DNA of 64,000 nucleotides, taken from a virus. Taxonomy: Duplodnaviria; Caudoviricetes. The translations under genes and the position numbers were made by a program. How positions within the stretch are numbered: the first letter of the stretch is position 1; the number at the start of each line of letters is the position of its first letter. The notes beneath the pieces are model-generated. The model was not told the origin of the DNA and ran no database searches. It worked only from the letters and a program-made list of their open reading frames with translations. Location: the IMG/VR virus record IMGVR_UViG_3300027870_000002, positions 1,202 through 65,201 of that record. One strand, given 5' to 3'. Shown piece after piece: positions 18,819 to 49,149 of this stretch.

Positions 18819-18830
18819 GACGCTTTCTCC

Positions 18831-20000
18831 TTAAATGTTGTAGTCTTCGTCAAACACATCATGAAATTCGTCCACAACCGCTTCGCGCATCTCAGGCTCT
18901 GGCGCTCGGTCTTGCAACAAAACTTGGTTGTCGCGTCTTACCATTACACGCTGTGCATTCCTCATAGCATCTATGGCCCGCTGCACCGGGTCGCCTTCAA
19001 ATATGTCTACACCTACACGCCCACCTCTCAGGGGAATGCCTTGCGGACGGGCTGGTTCTGCCACCGCCTCTTTCGTCTTTACCTTAGCCGGCTTAGCCAC
19101 ACGCCCGCGCTTGCTTAGCAAGAACGGATTGTCCGGCTCGTTCCACATATAGGCAGGGACTGGCTTCTTGCTGTGAAGAATGCGCAGGTGTCGTGCATCT
19201 GCAATGGCTGACATCACATCTTCTTTCCGCACGTATGGCAAAATTGCCTTGCTCGCCGTAGTAAAAACCACATCAACTAAAGCACCCAGCCCATTGGCAT
19301 TTAGATAGTCGACAGGATCGACATTAACTTCCTTGCCAAACTTGCGAAAGCTGGTGCAGATGTTTACCCAGTCGAGGATGCGCTGCTTGTCAAACGTCGT
19401 CGGCAGATGCCGAAACTCTAGGGTCCCCTGTGTGTACAGAGGGATGAAGTTGATTGCCTGATACTTTGAGAACGCCCGATCGCGGGGTAAATTGTTCTTA
19501 GCCCATCCGTAAAGCAGCTGTGAAATGCCGCCAAAATCTCGCTGGCTAAGACAGATGGGGTCGCAGAAGCCGCAGGCTTCGCGCCATTCACCAGCGAAAC
19601 GAAACAATGCCTTCTCAAAAAGAATGTAAGAGAGGACACAGTTCAAGAATTCTGTGTTGTTATTCTCATTCATGTCAGTCATATCAACATGAAGGTGGAT
19701 GCCGGCACGGGGGTAGCCAACATCGAAGTTGTTTTTGATTGCGAAGTCACAGAACGTGTTAATAGCCTCACGTATCTGGCTCCCAACCATCCCACCGTTG
19801 GTGGTGAATTCCATTCCATTGTTGCGCAGACTATCGTCTCTGTGGGGGGTCCAGTCTGAAATAGAATTCTTCGTCACTGGAATGTTGCACGCCTCCACCT
19901 CTACTTCAATACCCACCTTGCAGAATGGATCGACAAGAGAGGTGTCTTGCGCGGGCACCTTATGCACCTTGTGACCAAACACATTTCCTAATGCACTCAT
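18831..20000 (-). CDS. Amidoligase (COOH-NH2 ligase family)
   Basis: VGIEVEVE, DDSLRNNGMEF, GIHLH, KYQAIN, GTLEFRH. Confidence 0.88.
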   Translation of the reverse strand: MSALGNVFGHKVHKVPAQDTSLVDPFCKVGIEVEVEACNIPVTKNSISDWTPHRDDSLRNNGMEFTTNGGMVGSQIREAINTFCDFAIKNNFDVGYPRAGIHLHVDMTDMNENNNTEFLNCVLSYILFEKALFRFAGEWREACGFCDPICLSQRDFGGISQLLYGWAKNNLPRDRAFSKYQAINFIPLYTQGTLEFRHLPTTFDKQRILDWVNICTSFRKFGKEVNVDPVDYLNANGLGALVDVVFTTASKAILPYVRKEDVMSAIADARHLRILHSKKPVPAYMWNEPDNPFLLSKRGRVAKPAKVKTKEAVAEPARPQGIPLRGGRVGVDIFEGDPVQRAIDAMRNAQRVMVRRDNQVLLQDRAPEPEMREAVVDEFHDVFDEDYNI

Positions 20001-21804: not shown

Positions 21805-22212
21805 CTAAGCACTCTCCTTTGGAGTTAAGGAAGCAGGTTGTGGAATCCACGGATGCCATTCTTTCTTTTCCTTGGCAGGATGTATCACCTTGTTAATAGC
21901 GGCGGCAATCTGCTTGCGCAAAGTGCGGCGCTCTTTCTTTGAAGGCTTGCGCAAAAACTGCTCACGCAATGTGGCGGCCATGTCGAGGTTGGGGCCTTCT
22001 TTATCAATACTACTATCACCAATCACCAGCTTGTATTGACTTGGGTCTTTGCGCCAGTCGGCCGTCCACACGCCCGTCAAGATTTCTCCTGTTTGCAGGG
22101 CGCCGCGGCATCTTGCCATGGCCTCTTCTTCTTTTTTAATCCACGCATACCCAAAACGCTTTCCTCCTTTGGGCGTTGTGACACGCATGATTGCGACAAG
22201 AGGCTCGCTCAT
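21805..22212 (-). CDS. Hypothetical basic protein
   Basis: ORF. Confidence 0.6.
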   Translation of the reverse strand: MSEPLVAIMRVTTPKGGKRFGYAWIKKEEEAMARCRGALQTGEILTGVWTADWRKDPSQYKLVIGDSSIDKEGPNLDMAATLREQFLRKPSKKERRTLRKQIAAAINKVIHPAKEKKEWHPWIPQPASLTPKESA

Positions 22213-23117
22213 TCTTTCTTCTCCAAGAGAAGCTGCTGCTTATACCATTCGGGAAATCCCGCCTGTGCTCTGGATGCCCAACGTTTCTTGAACATGACGA
22301 ACAATTCCTCCTTGAAATTGTCCTTCTCTTCTTCCACCATGTCACGCCAGATTTCAGCCATGAGAATGCCAATGTCCTTTGGCTCTCCTACTAGCTTACC
22401 ATCATCACGCAGGTGCTGCACAGCCTTGTGCCAGCGCGCTTCAGTTTTGTACTTGTCGAATAGAAGTTCGAGTGCGTCCTTCTTACCCATCCAATCTGGG
22501 TTGTTGGCGTGTTTCTCCTTGAATTGCTCACTCACATACTTGAGGACAGTGAGAGGATAAATCATCCCCGCAAAGTCCATTGGGCGAGTGTAGTCCTTGA
22601 TGACGATGCCTTCAATATCAGCACCACCAAGCTGACTCTTACCAGCCGCCTTCATCATGTCTGCAAATTCCTGCAAACTTCCGAAGGTGACATTACCTAG
22701 GAGTCGTACGCACTCCACACCAAGCAAATCAGCAGTGCGCTGCACAGTGTCATAATCACTGCCTCTGGTACGGTCAAAATCAAAAACACCAAACAGCGCA
22801 ATGTGGTTAAGAGGAATCCTATCGTACGCGAGCGTATTGTGACGAGGAGTTTTAAGAGTTTCTCCATAATATGATGTGCCTTTTGCGAGCTTGTGTTGAA
22901 TAGAACGCACATACTCTACAGCAGGGCGGAACATATCGTTTGGGTATTCAGGGTCGATAGCCTGCCCCTTACTACGGCAATGCAGCTTGCCATTTTCATC
23001 GAGTCCGAATGCAAACATGGACCCATCCACCTTCTCTGTCACTTCAACAGGCCGACCAATAACAAGGTCGGAATATTTCCCCACAAGGGGGAGAATCTTG
23101 GGATAGCTCTTAATCAT
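22209..23117 (-). CDS. RNA ligase (Rnl2-like nucleotidyltransferase)
   Basis: YPKI, TEKVDGS, YGE, FGVFD, EGIVIK, KYVSEQFKE. Confidence 0.85.
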   Translation of the reverse strand: MIKSYPKILPLVGKYSDLVIGRPVEVTEKVDGSMFAFGLDENGKLHCRSKGQAIDPEYPNDMFRPAVEYVRSIQHKLAKGTSYYGETLKTPRHNTLAYDRIPLNHIALFGVFDFDRTRGSDYDTVQRTADLLGVECVRLLGNVTFGSLQEFADMMKAAGKSQLGGADIEGIVIKDYTRPMDFAGMIYPLTVLKYVSEQFKEKHANNPDWMGKKDALELLFDKYKTEARWHKAVQHLRDDGKLVGEPKDIGILMAEIWRDMVEEEKDNFKEELFVMFKKRWASRAQAGFPEWYKQQLLLEKKE

Positions 23118-25645: not shown

Positions 25646-25944
25646 ACAATTTCCTCAAGGCCAAATTCCTTGCGTTCCAGCTGCATAACATCAACAGCGT
25701 CTTCGTACGAAGGCCTCTCAACGCTGAAGCCATAATTGGCGTCACGGAATTGGAAATAACGACGCCGAGCCACCTGTCTACCAGTTCGGCGGCAGAATTG
25801 GTCGTCTGGATTGCGCAATGCTGCGCAGCCATACCAAACGCCGTCGTTCTCCTTGCGGAAGAAGACAGATGCTACATCGTCAATGTGGAAGTACAGCTCT
25901 TCATGCGTGGTAGATTTGTGCGGATGTGCAATCTTCGTGTTCAT
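25642..25944 (-). CDS. Hypothetical protein
   Basis: NPDDQFCRRTGR motif. Confidence 0.7.
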   Translation of the reverse strand: MNTKIAHPHKSTTHEELYFHIDDVASVFFRKENDGVWYGCAALRNPDDQFCRRTGRQVARRRYFQFRDANYGFSVERPSYEDAVDVMQLERKEFGLEEIV

Positions 25945-26765
25945 GTCCTCTCCTTTAGCCAAGAAACAAATGCGTTCGTATACGCTTCTTTCGTACTACC
26001 TGCTTCAATGCCCGGCGCACTGTTAATTTCACACACCACTTCTACACCAGAAGTGTGATTGGCGAGAATATCCACAGCGCAATGCTGTGCTCCTACCGCA
26101 TCAGCAGCGGCAAGAGCAAGAGCACTGAGACGCTCACGATAATTACGCTCGTCACAAGAGAGAGCTTGTGTTGTGAACACCCATCCATTTCCATGAACGC
26201 GGATGAGAGCTTGGTCTTCAGATTGTTCAAACCCATTACGTTTCCTTTTCTGTTGGATTAAAACGACGTTACCAAAAGCCACGTGAACGCGATACTCAGC
26301 ATGCTTGCGAAAATAGCGCGTGTATAGAGGCGCAGCCGGAATGTTTCCTCCACGACGCACAACGACAATACCACTACCACTGTGACCAGTAGTTGTGAGA
26401 CGAGCGATAATTTTCCCATCTTCTTCGAGCCACCCTTTGACCGTCTGTTCGTGAGCCAGTGTCCGCTCTGCGTCCAAGGCAAACTGCAAGTGGGGAACAT
26501 TTTTGCCCATCAGCTCCACAAGCGTCTTGCGCTTGTCCTGACAATTGGCCACACTTTCGGCGCTGTTCGACGACGTTAGCCGACGTTGCCGGAAGAAGCG
26601 GGGAGTTTGCGACACGCCCCAATTGAGGACAATTCTGTCTCCTCGCGTCCTGCGCTCGCTATCAACAGACGCAAGGCCTACAGGCACGCCCATAGCAGCG
26701 CTTATAGCTGTGGCCAAGACACGGGCTCCTTGAGAGCCCGGATTGCGCAGCATTGTAATTGTCAC
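25941..26765 (-). CDS. ATP-grasp ligase (RimK/YheC-like)
   Basis: LNWG, DKRKT, GHSGSGI, EYRVHV, AVD, EINSAPG. Confidence 0.9.
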   Translation of the reverse strand: MTITMLRNPGSQGARVLATAISAAMGVPVGLASVDSERRTRGDRIVLNWGVSQTPRFFRQRRLTSSNSAESVANCQDKRKTLVELMGKNVPHLQFALDAERTLAHEQTVKGWLEEDGKIIARLTTTGHSGSGIVVVRRGGNIPAAPLYTRYFRKHAEYRVHVAFGNVVLIQQKRKRNGFEQSEDQALIRVHGNGWVFTTQALSCDERNYRERLSALALAAADAVGAQHCAVDILANHTSGVEVVCEINSAPGIEAGSTKEAYTNAFVSWLKERT

Positions 26766-30182: not shown

Positions 30183-30379
30183 AGCTCCCTGTTTCCGGCT
30201 GCGATATCCCACCCGATTTGCCAATGCTCAATGTCACCATTGAGGTACACAAGATCGGCCTCGTAGGAATGACTGTCTCGCGCCCTACCTTCGCGCTGCG
30301 CTTCGTAGCCTCGCTTCCGATACGACTTCTCGCACGCGTACATGTAAGCCTGCTCACCAGCGTGTTGCTGACACATCAC
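30176..30379 (-). CDS. Hypothetical protein
   Basis: RGYEA...HWQIGWD. Confidence 0.6.
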   Translation of the reverse strand: MMCQQHAGEQAYMYACEKSYRKRGYEAQREGRARDSHSYEADLVYLNGDIEHWQIGWDIAAGNRELW

Positions 30380-31305
30380 TCCCCCTTCCGCTGCGCGGCG
30401 ATTGTTCGCAACTGGCGTTGCTCCTCGATGGCTGCGTCGATGCGATCAGCCCATGCCTCAAGCGTCTGCGACGTGTGTTTGCCGTTGTTGACCAAGCGCG
30501 TCCGCATTTCAAGCGCGATAGCGTTCAACGCATCTCTCGCATCCGCGAGACTTGTCGAGCTACTCGACGTTTCGCTGGCGCTCGGTTGGGGGCGGAGGTA
30601 GAGGGGTGTCGTATGCCACGCCAATTGCGCGGTCCCCGGCCATGAAAACGCACGGCTCGCGCGCGGATCAGTCGGATCGCAATAGGCTGCCGGAGTTACC
30701 TCCGCCTGCGCTTCCGGGGCGGGGTGGGCATGGAAGTCGGCCGTTGTCGCCTTGGACCATTTCGAGTACCGAAGTGCATCAGCGATCAGCGTTTCGCGCA
30801 GCGGTTCGTGCGCGCCCATACCGAGCGCGAAACGCAACGGCTGACCGATCGGGCTATTGCCGCCCTGGTGGTGATACAGCACCCACGCGATTGCGCCACG
30901 TGCCGAGTCGGTGAACTCCGGCGACATTTCCACCGGCTCACCACTCCCAACGCCGCGCGGGAATGCGGATTGGATCAGGTCCGCGGCACGTTCCATGTTG
31001 TCGGCGATCTCATCGTAGGCGCCGTCTTTGCTCAATCCGCGCAGGTGCGCGGCGTCGTCACCAAGGCATGCCGCGATGCTTTCGGAGTCTTCCGGCTCGC
31101 TCTGCTCGTGTTTGCGCTCAAATTCACAAGCCTCAGTAGCGAGGAACGCGGCGCACCCATGGAAGGCGAAAGCGTCATGGGACTCTGCCTTATCAAGATC
31201 GCTCATAAACTTATCGTAGGCCCGAGCTTTTGCCCAATCACTCGGCTTGCCTTCGCCGCTGTGGGCGTATTTCTCGTTGGCACTCGTTGGGGTGGGGGTG
31301 TTCAT
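30376..31305 (-). CDS. GC-rich modular Ead/Ea22-like protein (309 aa)
   Basis: Starts MNTPTPTS at an ATGA overlap; linker modules HPAPEAQAEVTPAAY and PLYLRPQPS. Confidence 0.65.
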   Translation of the reverse strand: MNTPTPTSANEKYAHSGEGKPSDWAKARAYDKFMSDLDKAESHDAFAFHGCAAFLATEACEFERKHEQSEPEDSESIAACLGDDAAHLRGLSKDGAYDEIADNMERAADLIQSAFPRGVGSGEPVEMSPEFTDSARGAIAWVLYHHQGGNSPIGQPLRFALGMGAHEPLRETLIADALRYSKWSKATTADFHAHPAPEAQAEVTPAAYCDPTDPRASRAFSWPGTAQLAWHTTPLYLRPQPSASETSSSSTSLADARDALNAIALEMRTRLVNNGKHTSQTLEAWADRIDAAIEEQRQLRTIAAQRKGE

Positions 31306-31463
31306 GGTTGTGCTCTGAGGTAGTGGAACGACACGCAACCGGTTCCAAGGTTGCGCGACATGTACATGGTCCAAAGCGCGGCGATCAGGCTCGCGCCCAC
31401 GTAAACGCATCTGTGCCGATTGGCGTCGGCGTCCCAAAATGAAATCTCGTATCGCGATCCCAT
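31302..31463 (-). CDS. Hypothetical protein (53 aa, absent from ORF track)
   Basis: SD GAGGA; MGSRYEISFWDADANRHRCVYVGASLIAALWTM...; TGA overlaps next ATG. Confidence 0.6.
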   Translation of the reverse strand: MGSRYEISFWDADANRHRCVYVGASLIAALWTMYMSRNLGTGCVSFHYLRAQP

Positions 31464-31515
31464 TACGGCATTTCCTCGCGTTTGGGTTTTTCGCCATATG
31501 CTATGGCTCGGGGGT

Positions 31516-31716
31516 TCATGTGTCTATTCCTGCAACATACGGCACTTTATTGCTGTCATCGAGCACATATACGGGAATCTTTGTCTTGTTTCTGCGCTGC
31601 TCCCTGTCAGCCTTGCGTTTGGCAATAGCAAGATTTAGCAACGCCTTACCTTGGCGCAGGTGGTGGAGAAAACGGCCAGAGGCCGGGTCGAGAATTGGCA
31701 CCATTACTCTAAACAT
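31516..31716 (-). CDS. Hypothetical basic protein
   Basis: SD GGAG, ORF. Confidence 0.55.
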   Translation of the reverse strand: MFRVMVPILDPASGRFLHHLRQGKALLNLAIAKRKADREQRRNKTKIPVYVLDDSNKVPYVAGIDT

Positions 31717-31734
31717 GTTGCATTCTCCAAAAAT

Positions 31735-31791
31735 TGGTGGGCCCTATGGGGATCGAACCCATCTTTCGCGACTTCTCCTTTGAAAGGGCCC
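31735..31791 (-). ncRNA. tRNA-like minihelix (acceptor stem, T arm and CCA; no D or anticodon arm)
   Basis: GGGCCCT-22nt-ATGGG TTCGATC CCCAT-AGGGCCC-A-CCA. Confidence 0.7.
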
Positions 31792-31799
31792 ATTGAATT

Positions 31800-31876
31800 T
31801 GGTGGGCGCGGCTGGGCTCGAACCAGCGACCAAGCGATTATGAGTCGCCTGCTCTAACCAACTGAGCTACACGCCC
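31800..31876 (-). tRNA. tRNA-Ile2(CAU), lysidine type
   Basis: GGCGA-CT CAT AA-TCGCT anticodon arm as in ileX-type tRNA; CCA encoded. Confidence 0.9.
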
Positions 31877-31888
31877 GACGATTTAATT

Positions 31889-32048
31889 GTGCACCACCCT
31901 CGCTCGTGCTACTTGCGACGAATAAGGGCGGCCGCCAACCGTAGCAAAACGTGTACGGCTGGACCCTCTGTTTTGCACGAACACTTCGCGGATTGCGATA
32001 TGCGGGCTGCAGGGGATGCAGCCTTTATTTTTTTGTTGTTCTCGTGCA
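31889..32048 (-). ncRNA. Candidate structured RNA upstream of tRNA-Ile2
   Basis: Stems CCAGCCGTA/TACGGTTGG, CCGCCCT/AGGGTGG, GGCTGC/GCAGCC; G-U pairs favour the minus strand. Confidence 0.4.
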
Positions 32049-32171
32049 GCCATCGACGCGCTTTGTGTTGAGTATACGTCACGTCTATCTCCCGATAGTA
32101 GTTGGAGACGTCTCTCGATTTCTTTGACTGTTTGAATATTGTTGCGTCTAAGCAGCTTGCTCTGTAGATGC

Positions 32172-32312
32172 TTATTCAAAATATTCCTCTTGCTCTTTGT
32201 CTTTGCGGAGCATCTCACGACACTCCAGCTCGTAACAATCTTCGCACAGACACTTCGTGCCGGACGTGTAAACAGCAAACGCACGCCCACATTCAGAGCA
32301 TGGCACGTTCAT
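32172..32312 (-). CDS. Small Zn-finger protein (46 aa)
   Basis: MNVPCSECGRAF...CLCEDCYE. Confidence 0.55.
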   Translation of the reverse strand: MNVPCSECGRAFAVYTSGTKCLCEDCYELECREMLRKDKEQEEYFE

Positions 32313-32314
32313 AG

Positions 32315-32500
32315 CTACTTCTTGACGCGCGCCGCGCGCTTAATGGCGTTGCTGCCAATGTCGTAGCTTTGTCCACACATCTGGTCGCGGCTCTTCGGAA
32401 TGCCGTTGTCATGCAACGGCTTGGGAGTGCTGATATGCACCCAATTCTCGGAAGCGGTGCGAAAAGCGCGGCGGGAGGCGGTGGTAGATTTGGTGTACAT
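32315..32500 (-). CDS. Hypothetical protein
   Basis: SD AAGGA; MYTKSTT... Confidence 0.6.
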   Translation of the reverse strand: MYTKSTTASRRAFRTASENWVHISTPKPLHDNGIPKSRDQMCGQSYDIGSNAIKRAARVKK

Positions 32501-32570
32501 GGCATTTCCTTGCATTCGTGCCAATTGCACGACACAACGGCCTTAGCAACAAAGCCGTTGTAGCGAACAA

Positions 32571-32768
32571 TTATCTCTTTTCTTGTTCAAAGCGCTTTTG
32601 CGCTATGTGTAATTCATGCAGTGCATCTCGTGCGTCATCGTACATGCCCATGTCATAGAACATGTTAAAGACCGCCTTGTCTCTCTTGGCCAAAGAAACA
32701 GAAAATGCAGCATTTGCATGCTGCTTCTCTTGTTGCCTCATTTTATCAATAACAGCTAAGGCGTTCAT
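32571..32768 (-). CDS. Hypothetical protein
   Basis: ORF with SD. Confidence 0.6.
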   Translation of the reverse strand: MNALAVIDKMRQQEKQHANAAFSVSLAKRDKAVFNMFYDMGMYDDARDALHELHIAQKRFEQEKR

Positions 32769-32803
32769 GCACCTATTCCTAGGCCAACAGGCTGCGTATT
32801 CAT

Positions 32804-33169
32804 TTATTTCAATCCCTTGGGTGGCTGCAAACTGAATCTGTTACACAAGTCGAGCACGTCCCGCTTGAAGAGATTGATAAAAGCAGGCCCGGCGTACCCG
32901 CTGTTGGCGTCGTGGCAGATTTGCAAATGGTGCACAAAAGCTGCTTCATGCGAGCTAACACGCCCTTCATTAACAAGAAAAAGCCAACTTCCTGTGAGAG
33001 TTTCTCTTCCAGATGGTTTAAGAAAAGGAGCGGCAGCGCATCCAATACCTGCGTAGGAGCAATTGCCATTCCGCATAGAAGGCTCGCCATTCTTGAGAAC
33101 ATGCGCAACAGACATGTTCAACAATTCTTGTTTGGACAAGTTTTTAAATCCCGGAATTGTGTGTTTCAT
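32804..33169 (-). CDS. Hypothetical phage protein
   Basis: HVLKNGEPS...CSY...CAA...LQICHD. Confidence 0.7.
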   Translation of the reverse strand: MKHTIPGFKNLSKQELLNMSVAHVLKNGEPSMRNGNCSYAGIGCAAAPFLKPSGRETLTGSWLFLVNEGRVSSHEAAFVHHLQICHDANSGYAGPAFINLFKRDVLDLCNRFSLQPPKGLK

Positions 33170-33342
33170 GTGAACATTCTCCAAAGCAAATAGAGAGAAG
33201 AAGCAACAAGAACAACATTCCACACAACAAAGCCCTTGCTCTGCTTGTGTGGCTTATTGCTCACCTGAAAAGAGAAAGCAGTGAATTGCGGATAGGTCGC
33301 ACGCAATGCTTTGCGTTGCTCCCGTGTGCTTGGATAGTTCAT
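33166..33342 (-). CDS. Small membrane protein (58 aa, absent from ORF track)
   Basis: MNYPSTREQRK...VVWNVVLVASSLYLLWRMFT; ATGA coupling at both ends. Confidence 0.55.
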   Translation of the reverse strand: MNYPSTREQRKALRATYPQFTAFSFQVSNKPHKQSKGFVVWNVVLVASSLYLLWRMFT

Positions 33343-33728
33343 TTCTTATTTCCCATCATTGAATTTACCCAAGCAGCATTAATTTCCGCCTGCTTGGCAT
33401 ACATTTCTGCCTGTATTTGCGACGGTAGCTTGTTTGCGCCTCCCTGCTTATGCAGGGACGGAGAATCTTCTGTCCTGTACGTTCTGCACCAAATACAACG
33501 AAACACATCAGGCCCATGCGTAGCCTTACAGCCCTTGCATTGCCATCCACATGCCTGCGGCTTTGCAGGAGCGCGTTCGAATTTGGGCTCCATGCTGTCC
33601 AACATTTTTGCTACCGCATGGATACCAATACGCCCTCCCTGATTGTAGCGTGCTGGTGGAGGAGGCGGGGGAGGGTCGGGCGGCTCTGGCGCCCTAAATT
33701 TCTGGTAGCTAAACATAGTCCAGCCCAT
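33339..33728 (-). CDS. Early protein: poly-Pro, capsid-derived peptide, RanBP2-like Zn finger
   Basis: RIGIHAVAKMLDSMEP matches capsid residues 13-28; WxCxxCxxxHx6CxxC. Confidence 0.75.
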   Translation of the reverse strand: MGWTMFSYQKFRAPEPPDPPPPPPPARYNQGGRIGIHAVAKMLDSMEPKFERAPAKPQACGWQCKGCKATHGPDVFRCIWCRTYRTEDSPSLHKQGGANKLPSQIQAEMYAKQAEINAAWVNSMMGNKK

Positions 33729-33955
33729 TACAGAAGGCCCATTTCAGCAAGCTTGACATTATGTGCACGAATATCCTGTGCGTAGAGACTTTTACTACTT
33801 TCTCGGCGCCATTTGTGCCGCTCGCGGACGGAATAGTCGTCCACCATAATACCGTCGCGCCTCATGGACACAACCACTTTCTCACAAACGTCTTCTTCAA
33901 ACAGTGCTGTATTGTAGACAGTGCGCATTACAATTCTCCAAGCAATTCTTTCCAA
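33728..33955 (-). CDS. Hypothetical protein
   Basis: ORF. Confidence 0.55.
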   Translation of the reverse strand: MERIAWRIVMRTVYNTALFEEDVCEKVVVSMRRDGIMVDDYSVRERHKWRRESSKSLYAQDIRAHNVKLAEMGLL

Positions 33956-34143
33956 AACGCAGGAATCCGCTCGTCCCTATAGAACGGGTCGGCTGGTGTG
34001 GCCCTTATAATGTCTGCAAGCTCTGCGTCAAACCAATACAGAGCATTAAACAAACATTGCCCTTTGCGCCATGCACCTCGGCTCTCGCGGAGCATAGAGT
34101 CCGCGCGCCTACTAATAGCGGCAGCGAAGTCTTGTTTGTTCAT
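33928..34143 (-). CDS. Hypothetical phage protein
   Basis: WRKGQCLFNAL...DPFYRD. Confidence 0.7.
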   Translation of the reverse strand: MNKQDFAAAISRRADSMLRESRGAWRKGQCLFNALYWFDAELADIIRATPADPFYRDERIPAFWKELLGEL

Positions 34144-34231
34144 TCCAGTGGCTCCTTATCAATCCAGCACCAGAGAATTGCGGCAATAGAGCCCGCAATA
34201 ATGATGATATAAGCAATGCAGAGCCAATCCC

Positions 34232-34414
34232 TCACACTTTTCCCTTTGTTTTGTTTGCTTTGTCCCAAGATGGGTTGGCAAACTTCAAGAGGTCACGTCG
34301 GCGTATTAGAGACGCCACGGCCGGATCATTTACACTTTTGCAGTTGGCCACCACCTCATGAGTGATTTGGCTGTCCAAATCCCTTATGCGCTGTCTTACT
34401 TCGGTAATTTTCAT
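34232..34414 (-). CDS. Hypothetical early protein
   Basis: SD AAGGAGG. Confidence 0.65.
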   Translation of the reverse strand: MKITEVRQRIRDLDSQITHEVVANCKSVNDPAVASLIRRRDLLKFANPSWDKANKTKGKV

Positions 34415-34516
34415 ACACCCTCCTTATAAACAAGGCATTGTCAATCATGCTGCAACGCTATTAGCGCGAACATGCTTGAAAATGCGTTATTCACCAATTG
34501 CACACCCCTAATTGCG

Positions 34517-34567
34517 ATTATCTGATATGCGAATGATTCTCATTACCTATCGCTAATGATTCTCATT
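34517..34567. promoter_or_regulatory. Two tandem Fur-box-like operators
   Basis: AATGATTCTCATT twice; GGTAATGAGAATCATTCGC is 15/19 to the Fur consensus. Confidence 0.6.
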
Positions 34568-34593
34568 TGAGGCTAAAACCCAGACACGACAAT

Positions 34594-34628
34594 GCCCCTA
34601 GGGAATGAATCCCTAGGGGCGTTTCTTT
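34594..34628. terminator. Strong hairpin terminator after the 281-aa early gene
   Basis: GCCCCTAGGGA-ATGAA-TCCCTAGGGGC. Confidence 0.75.
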
Positions 34629-34640
34629 ATGCTTTATTGC

Positions 34641-35486
34641 TTACGCGGCAACCCTCGCCGGCTCCGCGTCCATGTTTGCAAGGCTTTCGCCTTCACCCTC
34701 GCTTGCGCCTTCCGTAGGCGTTTCCGACCCCTGCGCGGCCTTCCGCGCCGTATCAAACTTGGCGGCCCATGGGCCAATTGCTTGGATGAAACCGTCCTGC
34801 AATGCCTCATCGGCCGAATCTGCCGATACAATGATCGTTGTGAGAAGTTCCGCGATCATAGCTACCGCGGGATTGTCATTGCCCAAAATGGCCTTCTTGA
34901 ACTCATCGGCCATTGCCGCCGCATTCTTGACGCCTTCCGCCTTCGCGATTCGTTCCGCCTTCACGTCTTCGGGCAGCGCTTCGATTTCCGCTTTGATGCG
35001 CGCCTCGTCCAGCTGCCGTTGCGTCATGGACGCTTCAAGCTCCACGCCGGCCCGAATCGCATTGGCGATACGTGACCGGTAGTTTTCCGCCGTGTCCAGC
35101 GCCGCCTTTACCTGCCGATCCAGACGGAACTTGCTTCCGTACAGGTGTGCCAAGCGCTTTTCCACTTTCACGGGAACCGCTTGTTTCCCATCGTCTACCT
35201 GGACGATTTGTGACAGTCCGCCCATGCCGGCGTCATCCAGCGCGCGAAGAATGGACGCGCTTTGCAATTCGCGCTTTACATCGGCGAAGGCGCGATTTAC
35301 CGCATCTTCCGCTTCCGTGCCAGTCTTCTCGCCGATGGCATGAATCGCCAGCGTTACGCTGTCTTTCCATGCGTTGGACGTGACGTTGCGTGAGATTGCC
35401 GTAGTCAGCTTGTTTTGCAGCAAGCCGAACGCTACCAGAGCCGCGCCGGAAAGGCCGTTTTTGTGGGTTGTGATGCCGATAGTCAT
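34641..35486 (-). CDS. First early protein, helical, function unknown
   Basis: SD GGAG, own terminator, Ala/Lys/Glu-rich, GC-biased codons. Confidence 0.8.
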   Translation of the reverse strand: MTIGITTHKNGLSGAALVAFGLLQNKLTTAISRNVTSNAWKDSVTLAIHAIGEKTGTEAEDAVNRAFADVKRELQSASILRALDDAGMGGLSQIVQVDDGKQAVPVKVEKRLAHLYGSKFRLDRQVKAALDTAENYRSRIANAIRAGVELEASMTQRQLDEARIKAEIEALPEDVKAERIAKAEGVKNAAAMADEFKKAILGNDNPAVAMIAELLTTIIVSADSADEALQDGFIQAIGPWAAKFDTARKAAQGSETPTEGASEGEGESLANMDAEPARVAA

Positions 35487-35571: not shown

Positions 35572-35599
35572 ATTATCGGATATGCGAATGATTCTCATT
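35572..35599. promoter_or_regulatory. Fur-box-like operator; 27/28 direct repeat of 34517-34544
   Basis: ATTATCGGATATGCGAATGATTCTCATT. Confidence 0.6.
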
Positions 35600-35734
35600 T
35601 ACACTAGGCGCATAGCGCGCAAGCGAGGGGATTTTCAAAGAACAAGCCGCGTCCGCCAGCCGTCCCGTTTCGGGATAGCCGCCGCCGCCCGGACACAGGT
35701 CCAGTCGGCAAGCCTAGTATGCACCAGGAAACGT

Positions 35735-35890
35735 AAAGATGGTGTAAAGGAGATGTAAAGAGATGTAAAGACTTGTGAATGCAAATACGAATGATTCGCA
35801 TTCGCATATCACATAAGCCACATTGTATACATATGTACAGGCGGAGCCGCTAGCATGTACATACATACTATCCCCCATTGTATACATTGT
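35735..35890. repeat. Short repeats (GTAAAG x4, CATTGTATACAT x2) in the probable terminus region
   Basis: Visible in sequence; non-coding divergent junction. Confidence 0.5.
35788..35810. promoter_or_regulatory. Fourth Fur-box-like site, inverted
   Basis: Reverse complement GATATGCGAATGCGAATCATTCG. Confidence 0.5.
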
Positions 35891-41425: not shown

Positions 41426-43706
41426 GCAAACAGAACAGACAGATTCCGCCGCCGAAGAGCTTATAGATCAACTAGCTGAACAGCTAGCGCACGAGCTTAC
41501 TCAACAGGCTGCCGTTAAGGAGGAGATTAATGCCAACTTAGCGAAGGATATTGAGGGTAAGCTGTCTGCTCGTATGGCCACACGTAAGGTGAAGGAGAAC
41601 CAGTGGCTCGAAAGCCTGCGTCTCTACCTCGGCTCTCTGTCCACTTACAATACTGTCACAGGTGACTACCCGTTTGGCACAGCCAATGATAGAACTCTTC
41701 TGCATCGGCCGGAAGTAAATATTGTTAGAGAAAAATGTGAAACCGCCGTTGCACAGACAATGGCGTTTCAGTTTGCTGCCGGTGACAAGAATTGGAGTTT
41801 GCGCCCACCACAGATGGCGGAGCTAGACGAAGATGACATGCGCCAAATTATGGAGATGCAGCCGCAGGGCGCGCCTCCTCTAACGCCGGAAGAAGTATTG
41901 GCAGCTCGCATCGATTTGATGGAGCGCCAGATGATGACAGATTTGGAAAATTGTAACTACGGAGCAGAGGCTCGCAAGGCGGGCAATGACCGAGTAGTTA
42001 TGGGCACGGGTATCATGAAGTTGCCCACCAACAGCACACAGGTTAAAAAAACCTACATAAAGCAGCCTGATAGTCAGGGCCGCCCACAGCGTATCCCCAA
42101 GCTAGTTGCAGAACTAGTTCCTTCCGTCTATCGTGTAAACCCTTGGTACTTCTTCCCAGATAATGCTGTCGCTGACATCAATGATGCAGAAGACAGTATT
42201 GAAGTGCACCCTATGAGTAAGACTCAGCTCCGAGAGCTGTGCCACAATCCGGGCTTTGATAAAGACGTGATTGAAGAGTGCATCAAAGAAGAGCCCAAGA
42301 ACTACATCAATAGCCCCTTCAATGATCCTGCCTATTTAACGCAAGGCATCAATCTGCTCAAGAATAGGTTCTTGGTACTAGAGTACCATGGCCCTATGAA
42401 GCGAGAAGATTTGGAAAAGTTGGGCAAGGCCTCCGCCGTAGAAAATCCATGTGATGAGTATTACATGGAAATCTGGGTGTGCAACAGCCGTGTTATTCGT
42501 ATGGAGTTTTCCAATCTGGAAGGATGCCAGCGCGTACCTTATGTTGTGTGCCCGTGGGAACCAGACCCAGCTACAGTGTTTGGATTTGGTGTACCAATGC
42601 TCGTGCGTGATAGACAGCGTACGGTAAACGAATGCAATAAGATGATGCTGGACAATGCAGGTATTTCTGCTGGTCCTCAGACAATTGTTGACACCACACT
42701 AATCAACCCTGCTGATGGCGTCCTTGAATGCACGCCTTGGAAGGTTTGGTATGTTAATGAATTTGGCGCAGACACAACCAAGGCTATTCAGTTCTTTATG
42801 CCGCCCAATGCCTTTGAAGGCTTGTCGGCTTTGTTCTCTCTCAATCTAGGTTTGGCGGATAAGGAAAGCTCGATCCCCAACCTGTCTATGAATATGAACA
42901 ATCCTACTGGCGCACAGGATAGCGCTACGGGTATGGCTATTGCTCAGGCTAATGCCCAGAGCCCGCTCTTCTACAAGAGTGAGCAGTGGGACGATTGTAT
43001 CACTAAGCCTCTTATCAAGGCTATGTACGAATGGGAAATGCAGTACAACCCTAATGATGCTATTAAGGGTACGTACGATATTGATGTCAAGACGTCCACA
43101 GCAATGCTACAGAATAGCATCAATCAGCAGAAGCTTGAGAAGCTTATGATGATGATGAGCCAGCCAAACAATCCGGTTAGTGAATGGATTGAGATCGATG
43201 GGCTTGCTTCCGCATTCTTGAACGGTATGCACCTGCCAAGCGCGGGCATTGTTAAGAGCCCACAAAAGGTACAGGCAGAAAGAGCGCAGCGCCCACCGCC
43301 GCCGCCCGACCCGAATATGCTTAAGGCTCAGGCTGAAATGTCTAAGGTGGAAGTTGACAAACAGCGCCTTGCCCTCGAAGCACAGAAGCTGCAGCTTGAG
43401 GCTAATCAGAAGCACATGGAAGCGCAGATGGAATATGATGCGCAGCTCCGTACTGATGCTGTACGAGACAAAGAAGCTACTGCCAGCGTAATGAAGGCGC
43501 GCTACGACTACCTCGCTCAGATGGCCAATCTGGCATCGAAGGACGAACAAGAGCGCACCAAGATTGTCGCTGATATGAATATGCATTCCTTGGAACAGGA
43601 AACACAGAGGTTCCTTGGGGGCGCTGAAATTGCTATGCGAGCTAGAGATCAAAAGCTCAAAGAGCAAGAGCTGGAAGTAAAACGTAAAACCGGAACTGGT
43701 ATTTAA
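41418..43706 (+). CDS. Portal protein
   Basis: GTGIMK, VNPWYFFPD, FGFGVP, SATGMAI, long C-terminal coiled coil; follows TerL. Confidence 0.9.
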   Translation: MSKQTEQTDSAAEELIDQLAEQLAHELTQQAAVKEEINANLAKDIEGKLSARMATRKVKENQWLESLRLYLGSLSTYNTVTGDYPFGTANDRTLLHRPEVNIVREKCETAVAQTMAFQFAAGDKNWSLRPPQMAELDEDDMRQIMEMQPQGAPPLTPEEVLAARIDLMERQMMTDLENCNYGAEARKAGNDRVVMGTGIMKLPTNSTQVKKTYIKQPDSQGRPQRIPKLVAELVPSVYRVNPWYFFPDNAVADINDAEDSIEVHPMSKTQLRELCHNPGFDKDVIEECIKEEPKNYINSPFNDPAYLTQGINLLKNRFLVLEYHGPMKREDLEKLGKASAVENPCDEYYMEIWVCNSRVIRMEFSNLEGCQRVPYVVCPWEPDPATVFGFGVPMLVRDRQRTVNECNKMMLDNAGISAGPQTIVDTTLINPADGVLECTPWKVWYVNEFGADTTKAIQFFMPPNAFEGLSALFSLNLGLADKESSIPNLSMNMNNPTGAQDSATGMAIAQANAQSPLFYKSEQWDDCITKPLIKAMYEWEMQYNPNDAIKGTYDIDVKTSTAMLQNSINQQKLEKLMMMMSQPNNPVSEWIEIDGLASAFLNGMHLPSAGIVKSPQKVQAERAQRPPPPPDPNMLKAQAEMSKVEVDKQRLALEAQKLQLEANQKHMEAQMEYDAQLRTDAVRDKEATASVMKARYDYLAQMANLASKDEQERTKIVADMNMHSLEQETQRFLGGAEIAMRARDQKLKEQELEVKRKTGTGI

Positions 43707-43719: not shown

Positions 43720-43923
43720 GTGGCTGTTTCTTTTACAAATGAGACATGGGCGTATATTGAGGCGCAGATAGATACTGTTATAAAAAACAAGGTCGCCATC
43801 TGTACCAACTCTCAATCTTCGTACAAGGACTTGCTGCTAGCTCAAGGAGCTATTGCCGCGCTTAAAACGATAAAAACTCTGCCGCTCGCTGCACAGCGTG
43901 CCGCTAACACAAGAGAGACATAA
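43720..43923 (+). CDS. Small head-module protein
   Basis: W...QGAIAALK, between portal and scaffold. Confidence 0.7.
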   Translation: MAVSFTNETWAYIEAQIDTVIKNKVAICTNSQSSYKDLLLAQGAIAALKTIKTLPLAAQRAANTRET

Positions 43924-44981
43924 TGGAACCGGAAAACATTTCTGTAGATGATGCACAGAAACTCCTAGAAGAAAGTTTTGCCTCCTTCCAAAAGGACGCA
44001 CCTCCGCTACAAATTGCACCACAAGAGCCAGAGCCCGCCGCCACACCTGAGCCGGCCGAGGTAGTTGATACAGCAACGGAGCCTGTTGAAAAGGCTCCTA
44101 CCAAAGAGGAACCTGAAGCAACTACTCCTACTGAAGAGCCTCCGGCTAAGCCCGAGAAATCAGCAGATAAGTATGCTTGGGTAGAGAAAGTGCCCGAAGA
44201 CGTGCGGGCACACGTACTGGAAGAGATTAACCAGCGAGCAGCTGCATATCAGCAGTGGGCTAGTAACAATGGTCGAATCAGTTCCATGCAGAAGAAGATT
44301 CTCGAATTAACACGAGAATTGACAAGTCGAACGCCGGCTGAAACGCCCGCACCAGCACGACCAGCCCCTACTACTCCTGAGGGCTGGGCCACTCTGAACA
44401 AAGACGACCCTGAACTCGCTAGCGCGGTGGAGGCTCGGATTAAGGCAGAAGTAGAGGCTGCTGTAGGTCCCCTAAAGGACGCACTACAGGAGGTCCGAAA
44501 GTCTGGTGATGCTCTGTATGAGTATAATCATCAGCAATATGTAGAGGAACAAAGAGCGGCGCTTAGTGCGCAGGTTAGCAACTATGAAGAAGTGGTGACG
44601 AGTGATTCTTTCAAGCATTGGGTGATGAACATTGCCCCCGAAGCTATTAGAAACACAGCCCTTCATTCAGTAGAGGCAAAGGACGCTATCGGTGTACTGC
44701 GGTATTATGCAGACGATATGATCCGCCTTGGGTATGCTCAGCCTAGTACACAACAGCCCCCAACTCAGGCTTCCGCTGCATCTTCGCTTGCACCAACACC
44801 CAGTTCTTCCACAGTTGATAAGATTGTCGAAGAGCGTGGTAGAAAGGCAGGCGCTCCTACGGTTGTAAAGTCTCCGCCAGCTCTTTCAGCACGAGGCCCT
44901 ATTGATCCAAAGGGTCCGGTACGGAAAGAAGATGCGGATGCAATCTTCCTAGAAGCATGGAAATCACTACATAAAACTTAA
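43923..44981 (+). CDS. Capsid scaffolding protein
   Basis: Acidic/Pro-rich N-terminus, coiled coil, precedes capsid gene. Confidence 0.75.
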   Translation: MEPENISVDDAQKLLEESFASFQKDAPPLQIAPQEPEPAATPEPAEVVDTATEPVEKAPTKEEPEATTPTEEPPAKPEKSADKYAWVEKVPEDVRAHVLEEINQRAAAYQQWASNNGRISSMQKKILELTRELTSRTPAETPAPARPAPTTPEGWATLNKDDPELASAVEARIKAEVEAAVGPLKDALQEVRKSGDALYEYNHQQYVEEQRAALSAQVSNYEEVVTSDSFKHWVMNIAPEAIRNTALHSVEAKDAIGVLRYYADDMIRLGYAQPSTQQPPTQASAASSLAPTPSSSTVDKIVEERGRKAGAPTVVKSPPALSARGPIDPKGPVRKEDADAIFLEAWKSLHKT

Positions 44982-45002: not shown

Positions 45003-46004
45003 ATGGACACTTTTGTCACTTATGGTGATATTTCTCCTCGCGTTGGTATCCATGCGGTAGCTAAAATGCTAGACCGCATCGAGCCGATTCTCGTTCTGGA
45101 GAAGTATGCTCTTGTCACTCCGCTGCCTAAGAATGTGGGCGAAGTGATTAAATGGCGCCGTGTGCGTCCGCTTGTTGTTTCGACCCAGACCATCACCGAA
45201 GGTGTTACTCCGCCACCGGAGCAGCTGGTTTATGAAGACGTCACCACTGTCATTGCGCAGTTTGGTGGATGGATTCAGTACACTGATAAGATTGCAGACT
45301 TGCATGAAGATAAGGTGCTGGACGATTGCATGACCGTTCTTGCGGATCAGGCTGCGTCCACTAAGGAAGCTATCCTCTGGGGTATTCTCCGTGGCGGCAC
45401 CAACGTCTACTACGCAAACGGCATTGCGCGTACGGATGTGAATACCCCGATTGACCTAGACTTGGTTAATGCGGCGGTTAATTTCCTGAAGCGCAATCAT
45501 GGCAAGAAGATCACCACGCGTCTTGCGGCTGGTCCGAATATTGCCACTGAGCCTGTCAATTCGAGCTATGTGGGCTTCTCGCACATCGACCTCGAAACTG
45601 ACATCCGCAACATGGATAGCTTTGTCCCTGTCGAGAAGTATGGCAGCGGCACTCCTATTGATGGCGAGTGGGAAATTGGCAAGGTGAATGAAGTTCGCTT
45701 CATCCTGTCGCCGCAGCTGTCTGCCTTCGCAGATGCTGGTGGTACTGCAGGCTCAATGCGCTCTACTTCCGGCACCAGCGCCGACGTCTACCCTGTCGTA
45801 ATCGTTGCCAAGAACGCGTACGGTACTGTTCCTCTGAAGGGTGTGTCCGCAGTCGAAATGGCTGTGACCAATCCTAAGATGGGCACGCCGGGCGATGCCA
45901 TGGGCCAGCGCGGCAGTGTTTCGTGGAAGATTTACTATCAGGCTGTTCGCCTTGCGGAACAGTGGATGGTTCGTCTCGAAGTTGCAGCAACGGCACTTGG
46001 CTAA
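45003..46004 (+). CDS. Major capsid protein (N4 gp56-like)
   Basis: YGDISPR, LPKN, ITEGVTP, EIGKVNEVRFI, DAMGQRGSVSWK. Confidence 0.93.
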   Translation: MDTFVTYGDISPRVGIHAVAKMLDRIEPILVLEKYALVTPLPKNVGEVIKWRRVRPLVVSTQTITEGVTPPPEQLVYEDVTTVIAQFGGWIQYTDKIADLHEDKVLDDCMTVLADQAASTKEAILWGILRGGTNVYYANGIARTDVNTPIDLDLVNAAVNFLKRNHGKKITTRLAAGPNIATEPVNSSYVGFSHIDLETDIRNMDSFVPVEKYGSGTPIDGEWEIGKVNEVRFILSPQLSAFADAGGTAGSMRSTSGTSADVYPVVIVAKNAYGTVPLKGVSAVEMAVTNPKMGTPGDAMGQRGSVSWKIYYQAVRLAEQWMVRLEVAATALG

Positions 46005-47325: not shown

Positions 47326-49149
47326 ATGGCCCAGACTACCAAAACATATCTAGAACTAGTCAATGACACTATCGACGAATCTGGAGAAGAACTAACTCTC
47401 TTCCGGGAAGATGGGTCAGACTTTGCTACTAATAGCGAAGCTATGAAAAACCGCTTTAAGAAGTGGGTTAAGCGCGCGTGGCTTGATATTCAGGAAGACG
47501 CTAATGATTGGCAGTGGCTTAACGAAACTGCCGTTGTTAACATCACTCCGGGGATCATGTTCTATTCACCTTCCCCTATTACTGCGGGCACTGCTAATAT
47601 AAACCCTGCGGCGCTGATTGACGTTGATGACTCCACACAAGTGAGCGGTCTTAATGTCAGTAGCGTACAGGTCGTTAGTTCCCAATATCCCAATGAGCAG
47701 TTTACTGGACAGCGTGGGCATTACTTGGGTTATATGGATTTGCTTTATGATGATTATAGCTACACCAACCAGCATGTGCTGGACTTCGGCCTTAAGGCTG
47801 GCGGTGAGCGCCTGACACGCGAAGGTAATGGTCGCGTAAGTTTTATTGTAACCACGTCTAGCAGCGCTGCTCATACAGCAGCCGGCTTTATGGACGTAGG
47901 CGATGTTGTGAGCTCTGTCACTATAACCAACAACCAGACTACTGTGAGCAACACGTACACACTTATTAGCGGCAGAATTGATAGCAAGGAAGTTACTGAC
48001 GAGGGATTTGTCACCTTAAAAGTTTCTTACGCCAGTGTATTTGGCAGCTTCTTCGCCAAGCTTATTGAGCATGCTGAAGCGTCCGTATCAGAATTTGATG
48101 TGTCATTTAGTCTGGACGTCGCCACTTCTGAAGGCTCAAAAACTATATCTGGTACCATCCGCTTTGATGACATTGGCAATCAGTTTGTGACGACAGGTTC
48201 TATCACCCCTGTAGATTACAAGGTAGACTTCAGTGGCTTTATCACTGCAGGCAACGGCGTGTCTATTGGGGATAGTTTGGTGGACATACGCTACTCCACT
48301 ACACATCTGGGTGATACAATCTCTGTCAATACGGCATCGGTAATGGTAGTTACGGATATGTTTCCGAGCACTACTAGTGGAGCCCTGTCTCTGAGTGTTA
48401 TCGAGGATTCTGGTATCGGCACACAAATTAACGCAGACAATAGTGAAACTACTAAGTGCTGGTCACTATGGTCGGCACTGCTATGTGCGGCTGCACCTGT
48501 TTGCCAAGCGAATCTTCCGGGTATACTGGCTTATAAAGATGCCACGGCTGGTGTAACTATTGGCCTGTATAATGTAGCAACGTCCACTGTCTTAACTACG
48601 TTCTCTTTTACCTATCAGACGCCATACAACTACATCAATTATGTGCACAGTTGGAAGAGCTACGATTGGTCAGAAGAGACGGCCACGGATGATTTTGTCA
48701 AGTCCATACGCCAGATAGACCAGTCTACTTTCCGTATTATTAACCACGAAGACCCTACTCCTCCGGGTGAGCGTGCGCTTTCATATGTACCGTGGGGCGT
48801 GTTCCAGTCGCGTTACGACTACGCAAGCGCTATTCCAAACAGGCCGCGCATTATAACGGAAGACAACATGGGGCGCTGGAGATTTTATCCTCCTGTTGAT
48901 AAGCCTTATACGATTGAATTTAACTACATACGTGGCAGCCAGAAGTTGGAAAATGCCAATGATGTTCCGAGAGGAATGCCTGATGAGTATGTAGACATGA
49001 TTATGTGGAAGGCTCTGACATACTATGGTGAGTATGATGAGCAGCCCGCGGTTGCTTCGCGTGCCAACAAAAACTACAAGAACATCTTGCTAACTATTCA
49101 GCAAGAACTTCGCAATCCCTTTTACTTCCGTCCGGCACCTCTGTACTGA
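47326..49149 (+). CDS. Head-tail adaptor with large beta-rich insertion
   Basis: TYLELVN...WVKRAW..IQ..WQWL and FYPPVDKPY...P.GMPDEY..MIMWKAL..Y termini. Confidence 0.7.
   Translation: MAQTTKTYLELVNDTIDESGEELTLFREDGSDFATNSEAMKNRFKKWVKRAWLDIQEDANDWQWLNETAVVNITPGIMFYSPSPITAGTANINPAALIDVDDSTQVSGLNVSSVQVVSSQYPNEQFTGQRGHYLGYMDLLYDDYSYTNQHVLDFGLKAGGERLTREGNGRVSFIVTTSSSAAHTAAGFMDVGDVVSSVTITNNQTTVSNTYTLISGRIDSKEVTDEGFVTLKVSYASVFGSFFAKLIEHAEASVSEFDVSFSLDVATSEGSKTISGTIRFDDIGNQFVTTGSITPVDYKVDFSGFITAGNGVSIGDSLVDIRYSTTHLGDTISVNTASVMVVTDMFPSTTSGALSLSVIEDSGIGTQINADNSETTKCWSLWSALLCAAAPVCQANLPGILAYKDATAGVTIGLYNVATSTVLTTFSFTYQTPYNYINYVHSWKSYDWSEETATDDFVKSIRQIDQSTFRIINHEDPTPPGERALSYVPWGVFQSRYDYASAIPNRPRIITEDNMGRWRFYPPVDKPYTIEFNYIRGSQKLENANDVPRGMPDEYVDMIMWKALTYYGEYDEQPAVASRANKNYKNILLTIQQELRNPFYFRPAPLY

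Follow-up and report, generated by a model that had tools for sequence, protein, structure and literature searches.

Why would a gene in the replication arm of a phage genome carry a piece of the phage's own major capsid protein? We considered this question for ORF129 (P0001), an open reading frame (ORF) of 129 amino acids (aa) in the virus record IMGVR_UViG_3300027870_000002 (Duplodnaviria; Caudoviricetes). The stretch analysed, hereafter the window, comprises 64,000 of the 65,201 bases of this record, which is rated complete. A previous reading of the same DNA (the sequence-only reading) had noted a capsid-like peptide in ORF129 and proposed that it might act as a capsid decoy or mimic. We observed the copied peptide, traced its origin to this phage lineage, and identified a small family of proteins, built on one type of zinc finger, in which peptides of head proteins recur. 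By analogy with better-known phages we infer that the peptide may bind the scaffold and that ORF129 may be encapsidated, and any later role of the protein is likewise a proposal.

A second copy of the predicted capsid N-arm helix

The gene, the copied segment and its donor are located as follows.

33339-33728, minus strand: ORF129, an accessory zinc-finger protein of 129 aa with an ATG start (from the ORF list, codon usage, and a family found by phmmer)
33585-33632, minus strand: the capsid N-arm copy, aa 33-48, RIGIHAVAKMLDSMEP, identical to the phage's own capsid at 40/48 nucleotides (nt) and 13/16 aa
45003-46004, plus strand: the major capsid protein, 333 aa, the donor (from PF25209, tblastn and PDB chains)
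45039-45086, plus strand: the donor segment, capsid aa 13-28, RVGIHAVAKMLDRIEP, a predicted N-arm helix that is kept in the capsids of relatives

ORF129 appears to be coding, with a codon-usage log-odds of +0.136 in its own frame and of -0.31 to -0.47 in the other five (all six frames were scored); its start overlaps the upstream stop as TAATG, and its stop overlaps the downstream start as ATGA. The donor gene could be assigned to the HK97-fold major capsid proteins on sequence similarity. Its product matched PF25209 (30.7 bits, cut-off 27) and capsid chains in the PDB (E 9.3e-21), and by tblastn found 130 phage records, the best rows of which are annotated as major capsid protein (best identity 45.8%).

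The coordinates, both peptides and both identities agreed with those of the sequence-only reading, and aligned by BLASTP, ORF129 and the capsid protein share 13 of 18 positions (E 9e-7). The eight nucleotide differences (C/T, A/G, A/T, T/C, G/A, A/C, G/C and C/G) fall into five synonymous (CGT/CGC, GCA/GCT, TTG/CTA, which counts two, and CCC/CCG) and three non-synonymous ones (ATT/GTT, AGC/CGC and ATG/ATC), reproducing the split given earlier; five lie at third codon positions and none at second. The pair contains an exact core of 19 nt and is the best inverted repeat of the window (43 nt, 88%). A pattern built on its 24-nt core was present at exactly two places in the window and absent from all 100 shuffles, and an all-versus-all BLASTP of the 581 stop-to-stop frames of at least 50 aa returned it as the sole non-overlapping pair at E < 0.01, its own antisense shadow aside. 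There is thus no other protein-level repeat within the window, and the shuffles and the all-versus-all comparison together rule out a chance match.

Two further origins were considered and rejected. The copies differ at 8 of 48 positions, lie in opposite orientation and are 11.4 kb apart, which makes an assembly chimera an unreasonable explanation. A diversity-generating retroelement pair would be expected to span ~100 nt or more, as against 48 nt here, and the differences are not adenine-specific; no reverse transcriptase was seen among the ~29 window proteins scanned against Pfam or PHROGs, a set smaller than the full ORF list.

For the origin of the copy we used the capsid genes of two outgroups, G002, a fragment whose capsid is 88% identical, and G001, a complete record with a capsid identity of 68%. 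The 48 nt of ORF129 match those of its own capsid gene at 40 positions, of G002 at 33 and of G001 at 28, while the own and G002 capsid genes agree at 39/48. With both outgroups used for polarity, the ORF129 branch accounts for seven of the eight differences (four synonymous, three non-synonymous), the eighth being ambiguous. The best match being to the own capsid, this polarity places the copying of the piece, or its latest conversion, within this lineage; since then the copy has changed faster than the donor segment. The ratio of non-synonymous to synonymous change (dN/dS) is ~0.25 over 36 non-synonymous and 12 synonymous sites, with a Fisher p of 0.055 that falls to 0.017 only when the ambiguous synonymous change is added. 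The sequence-only reading had invoked selection on the peptide: the differences do lean synonymous, but the evidence is weak, and we take it as a hint, not a demonstration, of constraint on the copied peptide.

The copied stretch may correspond to a single structural unit, the capsid N-arm helix, as predicted at low confidence by AlphaFold2 (AF2). The copy was modelled as a helix at aa 36-43 of ORF129, and a helix was predicted at aa 12-24 of the capsid protein, both at low confidence, the capsid model as a whole (predicted local distance difference test, pLDDT, 38) being too poor for the fold to be read. The acidic residues D and E of the capsid segment are retained in the copy.

A small family built on a zinc finger

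The order of parts in ORF129 described by the sequence-only reading, a poly-proline run at aa 13-25, then the peptide, then a finger motif, was confirmed. The remaining parts of the protein are these.

33654-33692, minus strand: poly-proline linker, aa 13-25, APEPPDPPPPPPP (from the translation)
33474-33551, minus strand: predicted RanBP2/NZF-type zinc finger, aa 60-85, with proposed ligands C64, C67, C78 and C81
33345-33422, minus strand: predicted C-terminal helix, aa 103-128, EMY-KQ-E-N--W, common to part of the family (from the AF2 model and the family alignment)

Fingers of RanBP2/NZF type fold as two short hairpins about a single zinc ion. Their consensus is W-x-C-x2-C-x3-N-x6-C-x2-C, a pattern also visible in the Nup153 alignment, and the motif of ORF129 reads W62-x-C64-x2-C67-x3-H71-x6-C78-x2-C81. 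Where the consensus has N, ORF129 has H and the other nine aligned members have N, and G61, W62, C64, C67, C78, W80, C81 and R82 are invariant in the family. A family profile matched solved fingers of Nup153 (E 3.3e-4), RYBP (7.8e-4) and RanBP2 (5.7e-3), and of the 42 distinct PDB sequences at E <= 1 most are named as RanBP2/NZF fingers, the remainder being a few small zinc proteins of other kinds. The ORF129 finger was modelled by AF2 at pLDDT ~87, and its top Foldseek matches were all RanBP2/NZF fingers (root-mean-square deviation 0.5-0.8 Å over 25 aa), with E-values of 0.065 or worse for so tiny a domain. ORF129 itself matched no Pfam family at E <= 1, did not reach the PF00641 gathering threshold and had no PHROGs match; PF00641 was matched by four of ten family members (best E 0.003). 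The finger is thus predicted, from profile and model, to be of RanBP2/NZF type and to bind zinc, and the earlier description of it as RanBP2-like holds. It resembles the fingers of Nup153, RanBP2, RYBP, TAB2 and ZRANB2 in the spacing of the tryptophan and four cysteines, in the profile match and in predicted fold. Unlike them, it has H in place of the usual N and falls below the PF00641 threshold, and their known partners (Ran, ubiquitin and eukaryotic RNA) are not expected in a phage-infected bacterium.

ORF129 is not the orphan that it might seem. An exhaustive phmmer search of 1.84 billion representatives identified 17 proteins at E <= 1e-3, of which nine are small proteins (64-139 aa) and the rest long multi-repeat proteins that match in the finger only. 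The small members share a block C-G-W-x-C-x-x-C-x-A-x-N-x6-C-x-W-C-R-x-Y-R, usually preceded by a short hydrophobic N-terminus (M-P-W-x-x-I-A...) and often followed by a C-terminal helix. A word-index protein search with ORF129 returned only itself, and with the family alignment it returned six proteins, giving two further members. We found the family in two viral contigs, G005 and G006, and a metagenome scan yielded five family loci, three of them ~2 kb or shorter. The cultured-phage database held no match to 33000-34200 by megablast, nor to ORF129, P0016, P0013 or P0010 by tblastn; among the viral contigs there was no relative of P0014, P0007 or P0004, and the ESM Atlas returned nothing at a score of at least 0.9.

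The family profile matched none of the four related records (G001-G004, two of them complete), in which ORF129 as query had a single match, the capsid N-terminus of G002; the 281-aa and 373-aa proteins flanking ORF129 had no match in G001. The sequence comparisons thus characterise ORF129 as an accessory gene of a rare and patchily distributed family, in a fast-changing region of the genome. The promoter-proximal part of the leftward arm (30376-35486) is apparently not conserved in G001, despite the 68% identity of the capsid. In G005 the zinc-finger gene overlaps by ATGA with a DnaQ-like exonuclease ORF and is followed by a small ORF with a lipoprotein-type signal (MKKLILVVSTLLLGAC; L010 2441-2902 and 3243-3488), neighbours that differ from those of ORF129, indicating that the family occupies different neighbourhoods in different phages.

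The capsid piece looks like an insertion into a pre-existing linker. The nearest finger relative of ORF129 is P0010 (58% identity, the BLASTP alignment covering the finger region only), and the distance from the proline run to the finger, read from the sequences, is ~15 residues in P0010 and ~33 in ORF129. The linker itself matched only low-complexity sequence elsewhere in the window (tblastn of ORF129, E 0.07 or worse). Proline-rich low-complexity stretches at the portal C-terminus (43257-43313) and the scaffold N-terminus (44016-44156) are weakly like it (E 0.07-0.23), a likeness that is probably compositional.

Head-protein peptides are not confined to ORF129. The window also contains a candidate scaffold gene.

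43923-44981, plus strand: scaffold-like gene, 352 aa, between portal and capsid (by position); its C-terminal helix, ~44913-44978, is the proposed docking site

For 14 members the pre-finger part was compared with the N-terminal 60 aa of each of six capsids from the clade, and every score was set against 1000 shuffles. Scores of 70 for ORF129 with its own capsid and of 74 for P0014 with the G005-type capsid were reached by no shuffle (0/1000); P0014 aa 20-46 and G005 capsid aa 2-29 are identical at 16 of 28 positions (E 4e-7). P0019 (score 38, 1/1000) and P0004 (score 28, 9/1000) gave weaker results, and the other ten were not significant at p < 0.01. The post-finger parts of ten of the 12 P-numbered members, those with long enough tails, were compared with the last 60 aa of six scaffold-like proteins, the G006 and L016 members being left out. 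Here P0016, the G005 member, scored 89 against the scaffold of G005 itself and P0007 scored 71 (0/1000 each), with weaker results for P0018 and P0019 (both score 41; 2/1000 and 4/1000), and none of significance for ORF129 against its own scaffold or for P0004, P0008, P0010, P0013 and P0014. Within the G005 record P0016 matched, besides itself, only the scaffold C-terminus (E 6.9e-7), with a nucleotide core of 22/26 that contains two synonymous changes and one V/I codon. These results suggest that the flanks of the family took up in-frame pieces of resident head-assembly genes more than once. The sequence-only reading had proposed asking whether the peptide in homologues tracks each genome's own capsid, and this was borne out in part: P0014 has another capsid-type N-terminus, but the G005 member copies the scaffold C-terminus, not the capsid, and the G006 member neither.

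From sequence comparison, the patch that holds the borrowed peptides seems to be replaceable. Over aa 56-119, P0014 and P0013 share 89% identity, yet before the finger they are unrelated; a word-index search of longer proteins with P0014 aa 16-58 gave no match. Between the G005 (L010) and L015 genes a patch of ~50 nt is replaced, while ~75 nt before it and ~100 nt after it are nearly identical (as read from the alignment).

Such a patch would also suit a neutral mosaic remnant: illegitimate recombination or gene conversion would have placed short fragments from the junction of the scaffold and capsid genes in a disordered linker that tolerates them, with no role for the peptide itself. We consider this unlikely, if well short of negligible. 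The insert does lie in low-confidence and probably disordered sequence, the pre-finger patch is swapped even between near-identical genes, half of the family is without such a peptide, the selection test is not significant at 0.05, and the copy, with seven of eight changes on its branch and one ambiguous, evolves faster than its donor; the two donor regions moreover lie side by side, the scaffold gene ending at 44981 and that of the capsid beginning at 45003, and local mutational bias could mimic recurrence. Yet all the strong cases are in frame and in sense orientation, the pieces come from two termini that bind each other in model phages, capture occurs in at least two genomes whose own donor is known, the substitutions are conservative (V/I, I/M, L/M, A/S) and lean synonymous, and no other gene in the window has any such copy.

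The pre-finger patch of the G005 gene (L010 2902-3246) contains an out-of-frame match of 12/13 nt, CTACGCGGAC.AA, to codons 17-21 of its own capsid gene (L012), which may have arisen by chance (p roughly 0.01) or be what is left of an earlier capsid copy after a frameshift. This match would also fit a nucleic-acid element, an explanation to which we give very little credence. The shared 48 nt would then be a target in DNA or RNA, retained in both transcripts and recognised, for instance, by a regulator of capsid translation; the finger might bind this target and so autoregulate. Such an element could account for the exact 19-nt core and for the position of all donor pieces within ~110 nt of a capsid start codon, and some RanBP2-type fingers bind single-stranded RNA, including ZRANB2, which is among the Foldseek matches. 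Against it, five of the eight differences between copy and capsid fall at third codon positions and none at second, the likeness in G005 and P0014 is stronger in protein than in nucleotides, and neither a significant structure nor a third copy was found within the window.

Possible docking on the head-assembly machinery

The peptides borrowed by members of the family come from two elements, the N-arm of the coat and the C-terminus of the scaffold, that are binding partners in other phages. In 80alpha the C-terminal 21 residues of the scaffold bind the coat N-arm helix, a site for which CpmB of the satellite SaPI1 competes with a C-terminus homologous to that of the scaffold (PMC5644958). The gp5 N-arm of P22 is bound at D14, E15 and E18 by helices at the C-terminal end of gp8 (PMC9965877), and proteins joined to the C-terminal part of the P22 scaffold become encapsidated as cargo (PMC9962691). 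T4 loads its internal proteins by means of a targeting peptide that they share (PMC3012670). Because the two termini bind each other in P22 and 80alpha, we take the copies as docking labels.

We hold it a serious possibility, though somewhat short of an expectation, that ORF129 uses the peptide to dock on the scaffold while the procapsid assembles, with the zinc-finger protein then probably being carried in as cargo. On this proposal, a family built on the RanBP2/NZF finger would acquire, in its variable flanks, short in-frame pieces of resident head genes. In ORF129 the flank would have received the N-arm helix of its own capsid (aa 13-28), and the copied arm would dock on the coat-binding C-terminus of the putative scaffold (43923-44981), whereas for members with a copy of the scaffold C-terminus the coat N-arm would be the docking site. 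The zinc-finger protein would in this way enter the procapsid as cargo, comparable to the T4 internal proteins and the P22 scaffold fusions. The suggestion of the sequence-only reading that the peptide binds scaffold or capsid is, by this analogy, partly upheld, as both halves of the coat-scaffold interface recur in the family, which would fit scaffold docking. A co-fold of scaffold aa 150-352 (with a five-row alignment) and ORF129 aa 20-60 scored 0.00 against a mark of 0.32, a run without controls that weighs neither way.

Several observations count against scaffold docking. The 352-aa protein is a presumed scaffold, from its position and composition alone (its homologues stand at the same place in five relatives, the sole family match being a PHROG of unknown function), its coat binding is putative, and a coat-scaffold contact in this phage group is assumed from P22 and 80alpha. 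The selection signal is weak, and the tail of ORF129 resembles its own scaffold C-terminus no more than chance would give (score 21, reached by 363/1000 shuffles). ORF129 lies in the early or replication arm, outside the head module, and packaged proteins are more often encoded among late genes. Within the family, P0016 and the G006 member are unlike their own capsids (scores reached by 507/1000 and 874/1000 shuffles), and seven of 14 members (P0006, P0008, P0010, P0012, P0013 and those of G006 and L016) have no head-protein peptide at p < 0.01; the peptide is therefore dispensable within the family and, as the G005 and G006 members show, need not follow the capsid of its genome. The likenesses of P0014, P0019, P0004 and P0007 were scored without the genes of their own genomes. 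In ~140 comparisons one or two results at p < 0.01 are expected by chance, so that the 0/1000 results are safe and that of P0004 is doubtful. Finally, the donor segments adjoin in the genome, and a local mutational cause could underlie the recurrence.

The same docking could instead block or time the contact between coat and scaffold, delaying heads or hindering a co-infecting relative. The peptide evidence for such an assembly modulator or competitor is identical to that for cargo docking, and a position in the early arm would suit a role in timing. The precedent is CpmB, whose scaffold-like C-terminus competes at the coat N-arm (PMC5644958). Since the copy matches its own capsid best, however, assembly of the resident phage would be equally sensitive; the record is a complete 65-kb phage, with no satellite or size-redirection context, and seven of 14 members are without the peptide. 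We regard a modulator as distinctly unlikely.

We think it improbable that ORF129 is a decoy or mask, that is, an early protein displaying a capsid or scaffold epitope and thereby occupying a host sensor or hiding the epitope from it. A patchy distribution and a fast-changing patch are typical of arms-race accessory genes, and the gene lies in the early arm. Lit, by way of the Gol peptide, is switched on by binding capsid protein. CapRel is also switched on by binding the capsid protein, and capsid or scaffold proteins are reported as triggers or escape sites for CapRel, CBASS and Thoeris (PMC13728456). These systems do treat head proteins as epitopes, but as host sensors and not as phage proteins (PMC13728456), and as the cited sensors fire on binding their trigger, an early decoy would be expected to set them off. 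The capsid-sensor decoy proposed by the sequence-only reading found no direct support, and the comparisons favour the head-assembly interface over such a decoy. In the literature available to us, which did not extend to supplementary catalogues, there was no phage-encoded capsid decoy or anti-defence protein of this kind, and a decoy fails by itself to explain the recurrence of exactly two mutually binding termini.

Scaffold docking of a cargo protein has partial parallels in known systems. The closest likeness to SaPI1 CpmB lies with the G005 member, which carries a scaffold C-terminus likeness, CpmB being a non-scaffold protein that uses a scaffold helix-and-hook at the coat N-arm (PMC5644958). 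Such a scaffold-like tail was found in P0016 and P0007 (0/1000 each) and not in ORF129 (363/1000). CpmB differs in belonging to a satellite and acting against its helper phage, whereas here the copied genes are those of the phage itself; what ORF129 carries is the coat side of the interface (the N-arm), and it shows no evident dimerisation domain or size-redirection role. We know of no precedent for a non-coat protein carrying the coat N-arm half.

The T4 capsid targeting peptide is N-terminal, is removed by the prohead protease and is not a coat copy. The ORF129 peptide, in contrast, is internal (aa 33-48), and no prohead protease gene was noticed in the head module (portal to capsid), where no systematic search for proteases was made. 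As a patchy, fast-changing family, these proteins otherwise resemble the T4 internal proteins, which are diverse, small, accessory and often anti-defence, and load into the prohead core through a short peptide (PMC3012670). P22 scaffold-fusion cargo offers a further likeness, as a short scaffold-derived peptide suffices to place a foreign protein inside an HK97-fold shell (PMC9962691). That case is engineered, whereas ORF129 is known here from its sequence. Encapsulin cargo-loading peptides are likewise short, and bind the shell directly. In the literature covered, which again left supplementary catalogues outside its reach, there was no phage protein with a copy of its own coat N-arm, and no phage family of RanBP2-type fingers.

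Genomic setting and wider meaning

ORF129 is the fourth or fifth gene of a leftward operon, close to the promoter-proximal end of the leftward (replication) arm, and it is from this position alone that we presume it to be early. Beyond it the leftward arm encodes an RNA ligase, a DnaB-like helicase, DNA polymerase A, a ribonucleotide reductase, a thymidylate synthase and an exonuclease; the rightward arm encodes an endolysin, terminase, portal, the scaffold-like gene, capsid and tail genes. Two features stand at the head of the operon.

34517-34565, minus strand: operator- or promoter-like repeats (family D3/I4/I5), the palindrome AATGAGAATCATT twice, then GATAAT
34591-34623, no strand assigned: terminator-like hairpin with a 14-bp stem, between the gene at 34641-35486 and the ORF129 operon

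The palindrome AATGAGAATCATT or close variants of it occur in tandem twice before the ORF129 operon (34517-34565), and it or such variants also stand at 35572-35599 and 35790-35816, once in the next leftward promoter region and once, inverted, before the rightward arm. As it stands before both leftward and rightward units, these may share one common regulator. The divergent intergenic region at 35730-35775 contains four or five tandem repeats with GTAAAG (cgtaaaga tggtgtaaag gagatgtaaa gagatgtaaa ga), which resemble iterons and could be a regulator-binding or origin-like site.

We additionally identified in the replication arm genes for glutamine amidotransferase-like, amidoligase-like and ribosomal protein S6 glutaminyl transferase-like proteins (17379-20000 and 25941-26765) and an RNA ligase (22209-23117), which might together make up a module that modifies nucleotides or proteins. 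Among the late-arm products, two of very large size (49149-52334 and 54981-60662) have no confident family match (E <= 1e-5): the first, of 1061 aa, matched neither Pfam nor PHROGs, and the second, of 1893 aa, had no match in PHROGs, the one database against which it was compared.

Extended to the family as a whole, scaffold docking leads to a bolder proposal, which we find possible and on balance rather doubtful: that the family repeatedly captures the coat N-arm or the scaffold C-terminal helix from the resident genome as an exchangeable procapsid address label, with the result that a small effector is packaged and delivered with the DNA, or that immune sensors are kept from detecting the head proteins. 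If true, this use of the coat N-arm as a docking peptide that can be moved between proteins would be a new principle. Phages would then re-address small proteins to the head by copying 16-35 aa of their own coat or scaffold gene into a linker, so that, beside the T4 capsid targeting sequence and the satellite protein CpmB, there would be a targeting label derived from the phage itself. An accessory gene with a coat N-arm or scaffold C-terminus copy would become a signature for finding packaged or injected effectors in uncultured phages, and the copies themselves would offer peptides ready for use in filling phage capsids with cargo. Should the peptide prove inert, recurrent in-frame capture from one 200-bp locus still illustrates how phage orphan genes are pieced together.

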